From a virus, in the IMG/VR virus record IMGVR_UViG_3300021255_000047, positions 1 to 33,517 of that record: a stretch of DNA of 33,517 nucleotides; one strand, 5' to 3'. Below are positions 12,397 to 17,598 of the stretch, piece by piece. Below the pieces are notes generated by a model, which was not told the DNA's origin, did not search any database, and worked only from the letters and a program-made list of their open reading frames with translations. A program made the translations under genes and the position numbers. The number at the start of each line of letters is the position of its first letter. The stretch's first letter is position 1.

Positions 12397-13026
12397 TTAT
12401 CGTTTATATCTTTCACAACAATATATTTTTTCTTTCCATTGTGACACATCACCGCCACGTTCCATGATGATTGACAATATATAATATTCTCGCATATGAA
12501 AGAAATAAGCAAACACATCATCCTCGCTTGTTGTACTATATTTCCTATGTTTCATGGTTACGGCTCTTGTAGCTTCATTGAAAAATTCGGCTGTTTCCTT
12601 GTCTGTTTTGCCCTCTGCTATAATCTCTGGCATACCCATCTTTTCGCCACCATTAAACAAAACAGGACATATGTAATTAGGCTCATAATTCTTTTGGGCA
12701 TAATTGAGCATAGCAAGCGTATAATCATTGAGATAATAAGCAACTATGCAATCACCGCCCGTGGAAGTATTGTAGCCTTGGTCAATCGTTTTTAATTCCG
12801 CAATCAAATATCTTTCAAGCGTTTCTGCCTGCTCTTTCGATATGCCGTCAATGATGATATTATGCGTTACGTTCTCCCATCCATACTTGTTTATGGCTCT
12901 TGCAATTTTAGGCTGAGTTTCGTACCCTTTACCGTTTCTCCATCGTTTTTCAGCATCGCATGAAATACCAATATATTTTTTGCCATTCGGGAAAATATGC
13001 TCATAAACGCAATAGTTTTTATTCAT
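12397..13026 (-). CDS. GIY-YIG family (homing-type) endonuclease
   Basis: Start MNKNYCVYEHIFPNGKKYIGISCDAEKRWRNGKGY (GIY...YIG...R motif spacing as in I-TevI-like enzymes). The ATG at 13026 overlaps the MTase stop by 8 nt. The gene is AT-rich. Confidence 0.7.
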   Translation of the reverse strand: MNKNYCVYEHIFPNGKKYIGISCDAEKRWRNGKGYETQPKIARAINKYGWENVTHNIIIDGISKEQAETLERYLIAELKTIDQGYNTSTGGDCIVAYYLNDYTLAMLNYAQKNYEPNYICPVLFNGGEKMGMPEIIAEGKTDKETAEFFNEATRAVTMKHRKYSTTSEDDVFAYFFHMREYYILSIIMERGGDVSQWKEKIYCCERYKR

Positions 13027-14587
13027 CAAACACCTCGTCATAAGTGAGTTTCTGCCCGTCACGGATGCAGAATATTTCATCTTTTCTGCCTGTAAAATTT
13101 AACCACCTGTTTACGATGACGGAAACGTATCTTTCATCAAGCTCCGCCATATAGCATTTTCTGTTTAACTGTTCACAGGCTATTAGTGTGCTACCACTAC
13201 CGCCAAATACATCAAGGACAATCTCGCCCTCTCTACTACTGCTCTTTATCGCTCTACTGCATAAGGCTATCGGCTTTGGTGTTGCGTGACCGCCTGTGTG
13301 TTCTCTTTCGTCTTTTCCTGCTCTGTCAAAGTGCCACACGTTGTTTTGGTTGTCGTGAGTATTGTCAAAATATGCCCGTGTTTCATACCATTCTTTCTTG
13401 ATTTCGTCATATTCTTTCTTGATTTCGTCATATTCTTTCTTGATTTCGTCATATTCTTTCTTGATTTCGTCATATTCTTTCTTGAATGCGTCATTACCAT
13501 TTCCACGACAGAATTTCTGTATTTTTTGATAATCATCTTTCTGAATTAATCGAGGTTGTTTCTGCGTTCCGTCTCGATTTAATGTCCAATGCTGTGCGAT
13601 GCTTTTGTAACCGCATATTTCATTTAAATCTTTTTCCGTTAATCCGCTTTTTTGTAATTCCTCTGTCATATATTTAAGATATACCCCAAGAGTTTCAGAA
13701 GCGTCTAATATGCCATCTGCACCTTGTACTCCCATCATCACAAACAAGCACTTTTCGTCTGCAATCGGGTACATTCTAAAATCTTCTGACAACTGCCCTT
13801 GTCCGTTCCCTTTGTCCCAAGTGATAAGGTTCCGAAATGTTATCTTGTTCTCTCTCGCCATCGGTTTCAAGATATTGCTGTAAATATCCATCAGCGGTTC
13901 ATCAATCCCCCAACAATACCAAGAGCCATTGTCTTTTAACGCTCCGAATGTCAGCGGAATCCATTGGCGGTTGAAGTCGAGCAAATCATCAAAGTTGAGG
14001 TTGTCATTCAGAACACCCTCGTTCTCTTTCTTCATGCCATAGGGAGGATCCGTGAAAACAAGGTCGGCCTTTACCCCATCCATAAGCCTATCAATGACCT
14101 CCGGATCCGTGCTATCTCCGCAAATCAGCCGGTGCTCTCCAAGCTGCCATATCTCTCCGGCCTTGCAGCGAGTCTCTACTTCCTCCGGGATCTCTACCTC
14201 CTCGACCTCTTTTGGCTCTTCATCTTCCATGTCAAATCCGAAGTCCGACATATCAAATTCGAAGATCTCCGAGATCTCCGCGTCCAAAAGGTCAAAGTCC
14301 CATTCGCTTTCGTTCGTCTTATTATCCGCCAGGCGCAAAGCCTTTATCTGTTCGTCGGTCAGATCGTCTGCTCGAACGACCGGGACGCTGCTCATTCCGA
14401 GCTTCTTCGCTGCCAAAAGTCGCCCGTGTCCTATAACGAGGACGTTGTTCCGGTCTACCACAAGCGGCTGCCTAAAGCCGAATTCTTTTATGCTGTTTGC
14501 TATGTGTTCGACCTGCTCCTCTGGGTGTTTCTTCGCATTCTTGTCGTATGGTACAATCTCCCCTATTGGCATATTTATTATTTCCAA
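13019..14587 (-). CDS. ParB-like nuclease domain fused to an N6-adenine/N4-cytosine DNA methyltransferase (beta class)
   Basis: N-terminal ParB/Srx-like block (IVPYDKNAKKHPEEQVEHIANSIKEFGFRQPLVV...GHGRLLAAKKLG). Motif IV TDPPYG comes before motif I VLDVFGGSGST. Confidence 0.9.
   Translation of the reverse strand: MEIINMPIGEIVPYDKNAKKHPEEQVEHIANSIKEFGFRQPLVVDRNNVLVIGHGRLLAAKKLGMSSVPVVRADDLTDEQIKALRLADNKTNESEWDFDLLDAEISEIFEFDMSDFGFDMEDEEPKEVEEVEIPEEVETRCKAGEIWQLGEHRLICGDSTDPEVIDRLMDGVKADLVFTDPPYGMKKENEGVLNDNLNFDDLLDFNRQWIPLTFGALKDNGSWYCWGIDEPLMDIYSNILKPMARENKITFRNLITWDKGNGQGQLSEDFRMYPIADEKCLFVMMGVQGADGILDASETLGVYLKYMTEELQKSGLTEKDLNEICGYKSIAQHWTLNRDGTQKQPRLIQKDDYQKIQKFCRGNGNDAFKKEYDEIKKEYDEIKKEYDEIKKEYDEIKKEWYETRAYFDNTHDNQNNVWHFDRAGKDEREHTGGHATPKPIALCSRAIKSSSREGEIVLDVFGGSGSTLIACEQLNRKCYMAELDERYVSVIVNRWLNFTGRKDEIFCIRDGQKLTYDEVFDE
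13391..13495. repeat. Tandem 21-bp repeat: 4 perfect copies plus 1 degenerate copy
   Basis: ttctttcttgatttcgtcata x4, in frame, encoding (EYDEIKK)n within the MTase. Confidence 0.95.
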
Positions 14588-15066: not shown

Positions 15067-15339
15067 CTATCCCTCCGGATGTATTGCCGACCATAGCCGG
15101 TTGAGCTTCACGCCTTCCCACTCCGTCACGGCCTCGAAGTTATTGAATATAAACCCGAGCTGTGAAAGCATGATCCGAACGTCCGCCATTTCTTCCGCCA
15201 GATGTTCCTCGTTCCCTTTTCCGCGCAGAATCTTCGTCAGCTCTTTCTGGAGCTCCGACAGCTCCTCGATCGCGACTATTATTTGATGCTCTGTCCCGTA
15301 TGTGTCGATCGCTGCCGTTATTATGTCGTAATTTGTCAT
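15067..15339 (-). CDS. MazG-like nucleotide pyrophosphohydrolase (90 aa)
   Basis: Start MTNYDII at 15339 (ATGA overlap with the MTase stop, AGGAGG upstream). Carries the EExxE...AEEMADV pattern typical of MazG-type all-alpha NTP-PPases. Confidence 0.6.
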   Translation of the reverse strand: MTNYDIITAAIDTYGTEHQIIVAIEELSELQKELTKILRGKGNEEHLAEEMADVRIMLSQLGFIFNNFEAVTEWEGVKLNRLWSAIHPEG

Positions 15340-16574
15340 TCTGAAAACCTCCTCTTTGTGACGGCGATTGGGAATTCTTCGATTTCGGACGCCCACAAAG
15401 CCGAGCCTTTGCCGTTGCACTTCTCCCAGCAAAGAGAGAAACCGCCTATCCCGTCAAACAACGAAGCCATCGTCGCCGGGCGCTCGTACTGTGCCGATAT
15501 ACGGCGGAGCAGCCAAAACCAAAAGGGTAAGGCGATACTATTTCCGAGAGCCTTATAACGCGGGCTGTCCGATGGTTTGTGAAGCTTGCCTTTTGTATCC
15601 GTCCATTCCCCGAGGTCTGTCCAGTTGTCAGGGAAGCCCTGCAGGCGTTCGCATTCAAGTGGCGTCAATCTGCGGACATTGCTATTCATCACGGCGTTTG
15701 GCCCTCTTGATATAAGCGTACTTGATTGATCTTCTGATATGGCGAAGTCGTACAATGCGTTTTTTCCCTGATTGAACGCCGCTCGGTCAATGCCGAATAC
15801 AAGGTCCGTGCCATCCTTATAGTCTCGTGCCTTTATGGCCGAAGTAGAGCCATCCGGGCGGTTGTTGTGATCCCCAGTTATCGTCGGAGCCTGCACGCCG
15901 TCGCCGTTGCCTCTGGCATCATAGACCTGAACGACAGCGTGCCTGTCAGTAACATTCAGCGTGTGCGAAGATCCCTCTCGAACGCCTATTCCGTTCTGCG
16001 AGGTGTTCCTGTCGACCACATGCCCTTCGATGCAAAACACGGACTGGTTATTAAAAGTGGAAAGCGCTCCGGTGTGCTCATTCTGAATCAGTATTCCTTT
16101 GCCCCCCCCCTGGCTTTCCGGCTCTCTCTTGAAATGAGATTGCGCTTCCAGGGCTATCCGTAGCGCCTCGGGCAGCTCTTTCCCTCTCCGCTCCGCTCTC
16201 CTTAAAATCCCCTCGCACGCCTTCGCGCTCAAAGAGTATTTCGGAAGCGGAGAATCCTCCAAAATCTGCGACAAGCGCGATGCGTTTTCTTCGCTGGGGA
16301 ACTCCCCAAAACTGCGCGTCGTGTACTCTCCAGCAGACGGAAAACGGGATCCCGTCGGGGCTATATCCGAATATCCCTCCGGCTTTGTCCCATCTGCCCC
16401 CCCTATCAGGTAAAGGAACGTCGGGCGCTTCGGGGCTTGCGATTTTGACGATTTCCGAGAGAACGGCTTGGAAGTCTTGCCCTTTGTTGCTGGAGAAGGC
16501 TCCGGGGACGTTTTCCCAGACCATGTATCTTGGTCGAATATTGAAAGCTGCCCGGTGATTTGTTCGTCTGTCAT
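15336..16574 (-). CDS. C5 DNA cytosine methyltransferase, part 2: TRD, motifs IX and X, then motifs I-II at the C-terminus
   Basis: RRLTPLECERLQGFPDNW (IX) and RYKALGNSIALPF (X), followed by MASLFDGIGGF...WASEIEEFPIAVTKRRFSE* (I and II). AAGGAG lies 10 nt before the ATG at 16574. Confidence 0.8.
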   Translation of the reverse strand: MTDEQITGQLSIFDQDTWSGKTSPEPSPATKGKTSKPFSRKSSKSQAPKRPTFLYLIGGADGTKPEGYSDIAPTGSRFPSAGEYTTRSFGEFPSEENASRLSQILEDSPLPKYSLSAKACEGILRRAERRGKELPEALRIALEAQSHFKREPESQGGGKGILIQNEHTGALSTFNNQSVFCIEGHVVDRNTSQNGIGVREGSSHTLNVTDRHAVVQVYDARGNGDGVQAPTITGDHNNRPDGSTSAIKARDYKDGTDLVFGIDRAAFNQGKNALYDFAISEDQSSTLISRGPNAVMNSNVRRLTPLECERLQGFPDNWTDLGEWTDTKGKLHKPSDSPRYKALGNSIALPFWFWLLRRISAQYERPATMASLFDGIGGFSLCWEKCNGKGSALWASEIEEFPIAVTKRRFSE

Positions 16575-16752
16575 GCTCTCTCATCTCCTTTACGATCCGT
16601 ATTTGCTCCATGAATAGGCCGGAGCGTTCGCCTTCAAGTCCGGCACGTTTGCCGGCTATTGAAAGGTCTTGGCACGGAGACCCGCCCGTTATGCAATCAA
16701 CGACCGGGACTTCGGCTCCGTTTATTTTAGTTATATCGCCTAAATGCTGCAT
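16078..16752 (-). CDS. C5 DNA cytosine methyltransferase, part 1: motifs IV-VIII with the catalytic Cys
   Basis: MQHLGDITKINGAEVPVVDCITGGSPCQDLS (IV), WENVPGAF (VI), VPQRRKRIALVADF (VIII). GGAGG lies 8 nt before the ATG at 16752. Confidence 0.85.
   Translation of the reverse strand: MQHLGDITKINGAEVPVVDCITGGSPCQDLSIAGKRAGLEGERSGLFMEQIRIVKEMREHDRRTNHRAAFNIRPRYMVWENVPGAFSSNKGQDFQAVLSEIVKIASPEAPDVPLPDRGGRWDKAGGIFGYSPDGIPFSVCWRVHDAQFWGVPQRRKRIALVADFGGFSASEILFEREGVRGDFKESGAERERAARGATDSPGSAISFQERAGKPGGGQRNTDSE
16102..16110. repeat. Homopolymer C9 (G9 on the coding strand)
   Basis: gcccccccccT on the plus strand. It lies 7 sense codons before the ORF1 stop codon, inside both MTase reading frames. 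Confidence 0.95.
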
Positions 16753-16767
16753 TGGCTCCGCCTCCGT

Positions 16768-17082
16768 TCATGCGTATCCCATGACCTGCCCCAGCTCTAC
16801 CCAGTGCGGGCCGTAGTTTCCGAACTGATAAAAGGTCGTGTGCATGGGGTCTGTCACAATGACGTTTATTATCCGGGCATCTTCAAGTTGCGCTTCGATC
16901 TCTTCAAGCGTTAAAACCGCCAAGTCTCCAAGCTGGCTCTCTTCCTCCCACCACAGCAGCCTGTCGTTCACGCATTGAAGGTTGTCGAAGCTCCCGGTAT
17001 AAACTCCGCTGGCCTGTACTCCGTCAAATCTATAAATCAGGACTTCTTCCGGGTGCTGGACTGCCCATTTTGGACTACTCAT
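16768..17082 (-). CDS. Hypothetical protein (104 aa)
   Basis: ORF in the co-directional string; no recognisable motif. Confidence 0.45.
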   Translation of the reverse strand: MSSPKWAVQHPEEVLIYRFDGVQASGVYTGSFDNLQCVNDRLLWWEEESQLGDLAVLTLEEIEAQLEDARIINVIVTDPMHTTFYQFGNYGPHWVELGQVMGYA

Positions 17083-17293
17083 CCTCCGCGTCCTCCGCGT
17101 CCTCTTCTTCCGTGTCCTTGCCGTAATATATCCGGGTGCTGCTCGGGTAGATGTTGAAGGTGCAATCCCTCGCGCCTCTGATTACCACCTGCGGAGTGAT
17201 CTCGTCCATGAGCGACACAAGCTCGTTTGTCTTTTCGATTGCCTCGTCTGCGTTTACTTCGAGGTCAATTCCTATGGCATCAATCTTTTTCAT
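17075..17293 (-). CDS. Hypothetical acidic protein (72 aa)
   Basis: Internal start MKKIDAIGIDLE at 17293 preceded by GAAGGAGAAAAA. The longer track ORF would run through the tRNA-like element. Confidence 0.5.
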   Translation of the reverse strand: MKKIDAIGIDLEVNADEAIEKTNELVSLMDEITPQVVIRGARDCTFNIYPSSTRIYYGKDTEEEDAEDAEDE

Positions 17294-17314
17294 TTTTTCT
17301 CCTTCTTTTCTGTT

Positions 17315-17412
17315 TATGCGGGCAAGGATTTGCACCTTACACAATGCTCTCCGATAACTCCCAATCCAACAAGCATCATTCCCGTCGCGTCTACCTATTC
17401 CGCCACCGCATA
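17315..17412 (-). ncRNA. tRNA-like element (degenerate class II tRNA-Leu-like)
   Basis: Minus-strand RNA has a 7-bp closing helix TATGCGG/CCGCATA. It has a D-arm T-G-GCG-GAATAGGTAGA-CGC nearly identical to bacterial tRNA-Leu, and a T-arm-like hairpin GTAAGG-TGCAAAT-CCTTGC. The anticodon region is non-canonical and there is no encoded CCA. Confidence 0.35.
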
Positions 17413-17415
17413 CTC

Positions 17416-17598
17416 TTATTCTTCTTTCATGTCTGCTCCGCAGTTCGGACAAGTTTTGAAATATAATATTGCATTTCTTGTCGGCTCTGTCCTCACGATA
17501 TGTCCGCACTCTGAACAGCGATAGCACCACCTCTCAATCATGTGCCTTCTGCTATCATCGTGGACTTTTGTATATCCGTCATCTATCCACTTACCCAT
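17416..17598 (-). CDS. Zinc-ribbon protein (60 aa)
   Basis: CxxC...CxxC pattern (CYRCSECGH ... CPNCGADM). Confidence 0.5.
   Translation of the reverse strand: MGKWIDDGYTKVHDDSRRHMIERWCYRCSECGHIVRTEPTRNAILYFKTCPNCGADMKEE

Follow-up and report, generated by a model that had tools for sequence, protein, structure and literature searches.

Circularly permuted C5-cytosine DNA methyltransferases (C5-MTases) have been found in nature as well as constructed in the laboratory. The natural examples comprise M.BssHII, M.Alw26I, M2.Eco31IC, M.Esp3I, and M2.BsaI together with 22 more from REBASE (PMC5944983). A further topology, termed Type B and having its new N-terminus between motifs II and III, was engineered by Slaska-Kiss et al. 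in 2018 and proved to be the most active type of permutant, with cp62M.MpeI reaching about wild-type activity (PMC5944983). The same authors reported this topology to be absent from natural C5-MTases and suggested that poorer binding of S-adenosylmethionine (AdoMet) might account for the absence (PMC5944983). Here, we analyzed a C5-MTase gene within the virus record IMGVR_UViG_3300021255_000047 (IMG/VR), the whole stretch of which (33,517 nucleotides, 33.5 kb) is referred to as the window. Judged by its sequence, this gene is a natural Type B permutation of the known enzyme family; a nested overlapping gene, designated N2, and gene-specific poly-G tracts represent two further unreported features. 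We are fairly confident that a permuted family, N2, and tract-dependent protein products together provide the best explanation of the locus as a whole. In the following, WIN denotes the methyltransferase of the window, L-numbers denote fetched relative loci, and P-numbers denote proteins.

Residue 1 of WIN corresponds to residue 48 of canonical-order relatives and its last residue to canonical residue 47, with motif X being joined to motif I by a short linker, as in the definition of Type B. WIN thereby shares the topology of the engineered cp62M.MpeI, i.e., the new N-terminus between motifs II and III and motifs I-II placed directly after X. The engineered permutants, however, were laboratory-made from CG-specific enzymes, whereas WIN is natural and possesses a long multi-module target-recognition domain (TRD), an 8-residue native linker (ISAQYERP..), poly-G tracts, and the nested gene. 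The natural Type H enzymes (M.BssHII, M.Alw26I, M2.Eco31IC, M.Esp3I, and M2.BsaI) are likewise permutations of the PF00145 fold with X preceding I, but they break in the variable region, which gives the order (TRD) IX-X then I-VIII and leaves the two domains intact; in WIN, the permutation point is not in the variable region but inside the large domain. In plant DRM2, the break lies between motifs V and VI (order VI-X, I-V). This enzyme also runs from X into I, and the X-to-I junction of WIN is colinear with DRM2 residues about 172-252 (PDB 7l4c and related entries), but DRM2 is eukaryotic and not closely related to WIN. The beta-class amino-methyltransferases show an analogous linear motif order (IV-VIII, TRD, X, I-III). 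They differ in chemistry and family (N6A/N4C, DPPY), with no sequence relationship to WIN beyond the Rossmann fold.

An initial annotation of the locus had regarded a breakpoint between motifs II and III/IV as undescribed, which agrees with the searched literature, in particular with the reported absence of Type B in nature (PMC5944983). No report of a natural Type B permutant after 2018 was found in a literature search of incomplete coverage, this absence of later reports consequently being weak negative evidence. Nothing relevant was found on overlapping genes in cytosine methyltransferases or on poly-G phase variation in phage methyltransferases, the coverage again being incomplete.

Motif order and distribution of the permuted genes

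The methyltransferase of the window is distributed over two overlapping open reading frames (ORFs). Their location and that of the elements discussed below is as follows (aa, amino acids):

16078..16752, minus strand: ORF1, predicted catalytic half of the permuted C5-MTase, 224 aa, with motifs III (HLGDIT), IV (GSPCQ), VI (ENVPG), and VIII (QRRKR)
15336..16574, minus strand: ORF2, 412 aa, N2 joined in frame to the TRD modules, followed by motifs IX-X and the relocated motifs I-II
16111..16574, minus strand: coding part of N2, 154 aa (ORF2 aa 1-154), in the +1 frame versus ORF1 and lying over motifs VI-VIII
15732..16101, minus strand: variable (target-recognition) region of several short modules, GGGKGILIQNEHTGALSTFNNQSV, ..SHTLNVTDRHAV, ..YDARGNGDG..PTITGDH, ..GIDRAAFNQGKNA..SSTLISRGPNAV
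15498..15731, minus strand: motifs IX (RRLTPLECERLQGFP) and X (RYKALGNSIALP), PF00145 256-322, M.HhaI 265-310
15339..15470, minus strand: relocated motifs I-II (MASLFDGIGGFSLCWEKCNGKGSALWASEIEEFPIAVTKRRFSE), predicted AdoMet-binding beta1-alphaA-beta2 unit, PF00145 4-40, M.HhaI 15-52
16102..16110, minus strand: G9 homopolymer (C9 on the plus strand), poly-G site 2, with ORF1 out of frame with TRD-IX-X-I-II and N2 in frame
16397..16403, minus strand: G7 homopolymer, poly-G site 1, in frame here (..PDRGGRW..)

ORF1 and ORF2 overlap by 497 nt (16078-16574) in different frames, ORF2 being +1 relative to ORF1. Both ORFs (16752 to 16078 and 16574 to 15336) had been recognized with their motifs in the initial annotation; the frameshift at G9, the identity of N2 as a different gene, the enrichment and variable length of poly-G tracts in permuted genes, and the existence of single-chain relatives had been missed.

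The assignment of the motifs is based on several alignments. With the Pfam hidden Markov model PF00145 (cut-off 22 bits), ORF1 aa 3-100 matched profile positions 46-129 (E 1.6e-25, 90.7 bits), ORF2 aa 282-359 matched positions 256-322 (E 1.5e-12, 48 bits), and the last 44 aa of ORF2 alone matched positions 4-40 (E 2.4e-4). TIGR00675 also matched, scoring under its full-length cut-off because each ORF contains just half of the domain, and ORF1 matched phrog_116 (E 7e-43). Besides the profile match, ORF1 contains the catalytic motifs GSPCQ, ENVPG, and QRRKR of the PF00145 family. A phmmer comparison with PDB chains aligned M.HhaI residues 59-112 (GDIT..PCQ) with ORF1 aa 5-58 and M.HhaI residues 144-170 (motif VIII) with ORF1 aa 136-162. 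Within the C-terminal 127 aa of ORF2, aa 9-66 corresponded to M.HhaI 265-310 (motifs IX and X, the latter as RYKALGNS), followed by aa 85-124 corresponding to M.HhaI 15-52 (motifs I and II) with the AdoMet-site motifs LFDGIGG and WASEIE. Instead of the canonical order I-X on one polypeptide, WIN therefore shows the order III-VIII, TRD, IX-X, I-II over two frames.

Removal of one G from the G9 homopolymer results in a single ORF of 471 aa, which was compared by BLASTP with five canonical-order relatives. Residues 1-265 corresponded to canonical residues 48-299, residues 206-418 to 384-679, and residues 427-471 to 5-47, the last segment with 49-53% identity. The breakpoint falls between adjacent canonical residues (...VTTKRIPQ followed by MKHYGD...) with zero residues lost or duplicated, and the new start codon of the permuted enzyme is an internal Met of the canonical one. 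On M.HhaI, the break is positioned between residues ~52 and 59, i.e., between motifs II and III. As the restored protein reads from canonical residue 48 to the end and then from 5 to 47, the permutation is exact. The earlier proposals that 15339-15470 represents motifs I-II and that the order is permuted with a break between II and III/IV are thus borne out by the profile mapping, the PDB alignment, and the canonical relatives. The gene is a genuine circular permutation of the order III/IV-VIII, TRD, IX-X, I-II. Tandem duplication with subsequent truncation of the ends is a plausible origin; the fetched loci included no duplication intermediate with motifs I-II at its N-terminus as well as its C-terminus.

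Extension of the analysis toward relatives revealed the permuted order to be widespread. Using the IX-X-I-II segment as tblastn query, the junction from X to I was covered in one piece by 10 phage records, including the isolated Faecalibacterium phages FP_Toutatis and Lelie; their genes likewise start with MIHLGDITK and finish with ...LFDGIGGF...WASEIEEFPIAVTKRWF. A tabulation of homologues, as had been suggested earlier for this locus, found both orders among the non-redundant IMG/VR loci, with 57 permuted loci (37 single-chain and 20 with frame breaks) versus 20 canonical single-chain loci; the permuted order was present in at least 56 non-redundant loci. P0336 is an example of a complete single-chain permutant with 383 aa. 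Among the 120 best homologues of ORF1, 114 carry an N-terminal M.H.GD and none an N-terminal motif I, and motif I lies within the last 70 aa in 115 of the 120 best ORF2 homologues, both new ends thus being conserved throughout a large family. The junction was also detected in about 37 species-representative genomes, mostly of Oscillospirales and including Oscillibacter, Dysosmobacter, Gemmiger sp. An87, Acutalibacter sp. 1XD8-33, and Intestinibacillus massiliensis. In PHROGs, it is present in phrog_16427, labelled just “DNA methyltransferase”.

In a neighbour-joining tree of the III-VIII region, the permuted genes and the canonical genes each formed a clean clade, in keeping with a single origin of the permutation. 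The canonical sister clade (e.g., L023, L042, and the Heyndrickxia oleronia prophage L147) shares 45-55% identity over III-VIII, the same TRD modules, the same nested N2, and often the same ParB-N6-MTase neighbour with the permuted genes, but has motifs I-II at the N-terminus and is essentially devoid of poly-G tracts. Based on these data, the permuted genes probably constitute one large family of monophyletic descent, which resides in phages and prophages of Oscillospirales from the gut and is sister to the canonical-order clade.

Contiguity of the locus had been raised as a concern in the initial annotation. Mis-assembly was excluded by the same junctions in FP_Toutatis, Lelie, dozens of contigs, and a second assembly of the same phage. 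Two contigs of about 33.5 kb are recorded as carrying the exact ORF2 protein of WIN, and the second of them (L240; ENA ERZ28612978 scaffold_2358, 33525 nt) starts at a different point in the genome. From this, the window probably represents an entire phage genome, either circularly permuted or terminally redundant. When the locus was compared by megablast with 50,697 phage records, only a 218-nt match with 76% identity was obtained, leaving no near-identical phage DNA in that collection from which the tract state could be read. Assembly artefact, or decay of two tandem methyltransferase genes into a remnant, is a practically negligible explanation of the permuted order and was rejected: the junctions are kept in isolated phage genomes and dozens of contigs, intact single-chain members exist, each motif is retained exactly once with exact collinear mapping, and the neighbouring genes are unrelated to methyltransferases.

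N2, an overlapping gene within the methyltransferase

The first ~154 aa of ORF2 are not of methyltransferase type and are fused here to the TRD-IX-X-I-II half. This segment was examined in a set of 40 non-redundant sequences (<85% identity). The +1 frame was without stops over about 133 codons in 37 of the 40 relatives, compared with 5-15 stops in the +2 frame and with 2.4 stops expected from synonymous-codon shuffles. After motif VIII, the codon variability flips and is highest at position 1 of the MTase codons (1.5-1.6 bits) and lowest at position 3 (0.5-0.9). Over the same part, sequences compared in pairs share a mean aa identity of 0.62 when read in the N2 frame, as against 0.35 for the MTase frame and 0.32 for the +2 frame. 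The start codon of N2 is ATG in 30 of the 40 sequences, and an AAGGAG resembling a Shine-Dalgarno sequence lies upstream in 34. At the level of this alignment, the pattern shows purifying selection on the N2 frame. N2 combines this with an open frame in diverged homologues and start signals, as is characteristic of an overprinted gene. Frame analysis also ruled out that the N2 motif is a normal component of such methyltransferases.

The AlphaFold2 (AF2) model of N2 consists of a disordered N-terminal part of ~90 aa and a C-terminal three-helix domain, with a predicted local distance difference test (pLDDT) of 86-96 for aa 95-148. This domain, conserved as LSQILE..KYSLSAKACEGILRRAERRGKELPEALRIALEA, coincides with the segment where selection on the N2 frame dominates. 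Apart from a marginal match to phrog_16143, no family match of N2 was obtained in Pfam, NCBIfam, and PHROG, and Foldseek against the PDB gave no fold match with E<1.

In canonical single-chain relatives, N2 is free-standing within the methyltransferase gene, having its own start and stop and 131-139 aa. As +1-frame ORF, it was located at:

L023 2989-3384: nested N2, canonical-order relative
L042 3305-3718: nested N2, canonical-order relative
L147 3001-3396: nested N2, canonical-order relative
L148 3001-3420: nested N2, canonical-order relative

Among the called genes recorded for the NCBI assembly of the Heyndrickxia oleronia prophage L147, N2 is listed separately, under the NCBI name “hypothetical protein”, and the intact 721-aa methyltransferase appears in a version shortened by a later start. 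No N2 outside a methyltransferase was found: both called stand-alone N2 genes that were examined (L147 and L148, on long contigs) sit inside an MTase ORF, most of the remaining called N2 genes being on very short contigs outside this examination. An independent origin of N2 found no support in these cases. A nested N2 of about 130-155 aa is, by all appearances, common to the permuted and the canonical clade.

Poly-G tracts and the split form of the enzyme

The sequence at the joining point of ORF1 and the remaining enzyme reads CCA GGG GGG GGG CAA AGG. The enzyme is found in two ORFs because of a +1 shift at this G9 tract, ORF1 ending 9 codons past it. Comparison with relatives sharing the flanking sequence revealed that the length of the tract varies. 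The tract is G8 in L071, which encodes a single chain (...AISFQERAGKPGGGKGILIQ...); at G9 (WIN, L003, and L153) ORF1 stops and the +1 frame runs on, and at G7 (L070 and L072) the downstream portion lies in the third frame. A neighbouring-type site in near-identical contigs likewise varies, with G7 in the single-chain L100, G8 in the split L101, L098, L123, and L144, and G6 in L129. At the upstream tract (site 1), G9 in FP_Toutatis and G14 in Lelie break the frame, which accounts for the fragmented annotation of these phages. In FP_Toutatis (L001, NC_047915 6463-7874), two coding sequences (CDSs) are annotated as “DNA methyltransferase”, one of which fuses motifs IV-VI to the C-terminal half of N2. 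In Lelie (L002, PP479942 35169-36401), a 410-aa “hypothetical protein” fuses the N-terminal half of N2 to VIII-TRD-IX-X-I-II.

A single one-step edit of a tract recovers the full ORF in WIN and nine other loci, and L010 requires edits at two tracts. G-run edits alone failed to recover L006, L009, L070, L075, L081, L083, L120, L137, L149, and L151, and these loci were set aside. Between four and six runs of G8-G10 occur in the TRD region of L004 (3480-4240), L006, L009, L137, L149 (2850-3790), and L151, with modules in differing frames; in L004, inspection showed frame changes between TRD modules remote from any homopolymer. Such multi-run loci could be pseudogenes, chimeric or error-rich assemblies, or a case of frame-dependent choice of TRD modules.

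The tracts are specific for this gene. Only two G/C runs of at least 7 are present in the whole window, both of them within the methyltransferase gene, and in nine further long ORFs located there, GGG accounts for just 14% of the glycine codons. Inside 56 non-redundant permuted genes, we counted 1.01 runs per kb, compared with 0.061 in their flanks (about 16-fold enrichment) and 0.02 in canonical genes. Within this family, poly-G tracts were acquired by the permuted clade only. As in phase-variable methyltransferases, e.g., the Type III mod genes, an intragenic poly-G tract differs in length among close relatives and sets the reading frame; WIN differs from these in being a phage C5-MTase, in having two or more tracts, and in that one shifted frame gives a defined fusion protein and not only a truncation. 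The pattern of the tracts appears as a signature of hypermutable simple-sequence tracts.

According to the mechanism we propose, the locus would encode a phage C5-MTase with its AdoMet-binding unit (motifs I-II) shifted to the C-terminus. With the in-frame length of the second tract being G8, as judged by the relatives, the G9 of the window would let the catalytic half end as ORF1 and N2 read on into the TRD-IX-X-I-II half as ORF2. The products at the in-frame length would be a single-chain enzyme and a free N2, those with one additional G would be the split pair with N2 joined to the TRD half, and one G fewer would lead to a third-frame state, which is probably off.

For the G9 state itself, several readings have to be weighed. 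A miscalled homopolymer, behind which the true phage would have G8 and a plain single-chain permuted gene, could explain that a perfect 471-aa ORF appears with one G fewer, homopolymers being error-prone and several metagenomic relatives being broken at many places, suggestive of some poor assemblies. We consider it improbable, as the exact ORF2 protein, which needs the G9 frame, recurs on the second contig starting elsewhere in the genome, long intact ORFs and no further runs are seen in the rest of the window, the G9 state is also found in L003 and L153, and interrupted tracts of equal total length exist. Bacteria are known to show transcriptional slippage on long homopolymers, and the tract is placed exactly at the required frame junction for this or for programmed +1 ribosomal frameshifting to yield full-length enzyme from the G9 allele. 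A conserved stimulatory structure is absent, however, the out-of-frame length is not conserved (G7, G8, and G9 at the site), most relatives are simply in frame, and known slippage sites are mostly A/T runs, making this route highly improbable.

The remaining two readings concern the activity of the split form, and the layout of the locus bears on them. Its translation signals, read from the sequence, are:

16768-16770, minus strand: stop codon of the gene upstream of ORF1
16761..16765, minus strand: Shine-Dalgarno sequence GGAGG, 8 nt 5' of the ORF1 ATG (16752)
16585..16590, minus strand: AAGGAG, 10 nt 5' of the N2/ORF2 ATG (16574), made by conserved K-E-M codons of the MTase frame
15336..15339, minus strand: ATGA, overlap of the ORF2 stop with the ATG of the downstream gene, a MazG-like nucleoside triphosphate (NTP) pyrophosphohydrolase (phrog_2245, E 2.6e-25)

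An AGGAGG within the KRR codons at the end of ORF2 lies 8 nt 5' of the start of the MazG-like gene; this signal, the GGAGG-N8-ATG at 16752, and the ATGA overlap had all been pointed out before and were found in the sequence. With separate ORFs and AAGGAG-N10-ATG in front of ORF2, the locus has the gene layout of a two-subunit C5-MTase of the M.AquI kind. M.AquI alpha/beta differs in having the canonical motif order and a short overlap, whereas WIN is permuted with a 497-nt overlap and a second subunit opening with an unrelated overprinted protein.

In analogy to M.AquI alpha/beta, the split could be the working form, with ORF1 (III-VIII) and ORF2 (N2::TRD-IX-X-I-II) forming a two-subunit methyltransferase and G9 being merely the route to it. 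In favour of this, the N2-fused split occurs without a slippery tract and with both ORFs intact in L236 (GGGGAGGGG), L238 (G6T), L239, and L069 (GGGGTGGGG), ORF1 stopping immediately at the junction in L236 and L238. The intact N2-fused architecture (N2 N-terminal, motif I C-terminal, no PCQ) is found in 101 of the 120 best ORF2 homologues, and split proteins recur, P0283 (ORF1 of the G9 split L153) on 5 contigs and P0005 (N2-fused ORF2 of L236) on 3. In addition, the engineered pair Mpe[62-279] + Mpe[280-61], representing the same split of the same permutant, complemented partially (PMC5944983). On the other hand, the activity of this pair was incomplete, and the corresponding M.SssI pairs showed weak activity or none (PMC5944983). 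Of the permuted loci sampled, most (37 of 57) are single-chain, no precedent exists for a TRD subunit extended by a 154-aa N2, a pure G9 is expected to go on slipping, and third-frame variants exist. Altogether, a working split is a serious possibility that falls somewhat short of an even chance. Whether ORF1 and ORF2 would assemble as a pair appears about evenly balanced.

Alternatively, the copy of the window might represent an OFF phase variant, becoming active again only at G8 or G11, and the long ORF2 an accidental read-through of N2. Poly-G tracts act in this OFF/ON manner in phase-variable mod genes. Tract lengths polymorphic among near-identical relatives, third-frame states included, and the 16-fold enrichment of tracts in the gene versus its flanks would be in line with such a variant. 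Lineages locked in the N2-fused state, however, retain both ORFs intact, and intact N2-fused proteins are abundant, leaving the OFF variant a tentative reading of appreciable probability. A different and clean two-subunit split may be present in L154 (1347-3028), a permuted relative comprising a 318-aa and a 242-aa ORF that overlap by 4 nt within the TRD region, without any run longer than G7; the protein of its 318-aa ORF (P0254) is on record on 3 contigs.

A number of observations weigh against the combined picture of a permuted family with tract-dependent products. The isolated I-II segment scores 21.1 bits, slightly below the Pfam cut-off of 22. In the AF2 model of the single-chain P0336, the catalytic half alone is confident and matches M.HhaI, M.MpeI, and DNMT1, but pLDDT is 55-72 for IX-X-I-II and <40 for the TRD, probably because the multiple sequence alignment mixed ORF1-like and N2-fused rows. 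Homopolymer lengths in metagenome assemblies may be miscalled or may reflect a population consensus. Pseudogenes or assemblies rich in errors may account for the ten multi-tract loci that resisted repair, and the “frame-break” class may accordingly contain some noise. The third-frame variants (G7 in L070/L072; G6 in L129) are states unlikely to be functional.

The most far-reaching interpretation would combine the permuted methyltransferase, N2, and the poly-G tracts into a three-state frame switch, in which N2 acts as a functional partner and its fusion is selected, altering activity or specificity. We regard this as unlikely at present. If true, one homopolymer would toggle the protein architecture, beyond mere expression, and N2 could be a regulator, an assembly module, or a DNA-binding module of the enzyme.

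Genome context and implications

The genome of the window is of siphovirus type, encoding a tape measure protein, portal, large terminase, primase/helicase, a ParB-N6-MTase, and the MazG-like pyrophosphohydrolase. In the ORF of the ParB-N6/N4 methyltransferase (13019-14587, minus strand), a 21-bp tandem repeat (13390-13494; 5.0 copies, 97% match), in frame as (KKEYDEI)n, is located between the ParB-like and the methylase domains; this repeat is a possible second site of length variation in the methyltransferases of this phage. A 227-aa ORF (12397-13080, minus strand) flanked by the terminase and ParB-methylase genes shows homing-endonuclease matches, namely to phrog_314 (E 3.6e-17) and to phrog_5123 (E 1.7e-9), the latter being annotated as GIY-YIG. 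A 9-bp repeat (TCCTCCGCG, 2.6 copies) at 17082-17104 lies in the 3' end of the ORF 17075-17530, which has the acidic tail ...EDAEDAEDE.

The TRD modules of WIN recur in relatives in varying number. Multispecific C5-MTases are known from phages. By analogy, a multi-module TRD suggests multispecificity and a broad self-methylation against host restriction. The permuted enzyme, which we infer to be catalytically active from its retained motifs, would accordingly in this model methylate the phage DNA and allow its escape from restriction by the host.

It is rare in bacteria and tailed phages for two genes on one strand to overlap over a long distance with both under selection, and N2 represents a conserved overlapping gene of about 400 nt within a methyltransferase. 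Current annotation of such loci is misleading, as seen from the two “DNA methyltransferase” CDSs or hypothetical proteins in FP_Toutatis and Lelie. A large and diversified natural Type B family indicates that this arrangement is viable in vivo, and its natural single-chain and split sequences could be used to test the AdoMet-binding idea and to build split-MTase tools. The gene-specific poly-G tracts suggest a phase-variable self-methylation in gut phages; if true, this would bear on the dynamics of restriction between phages and their hosts in the microbiome.

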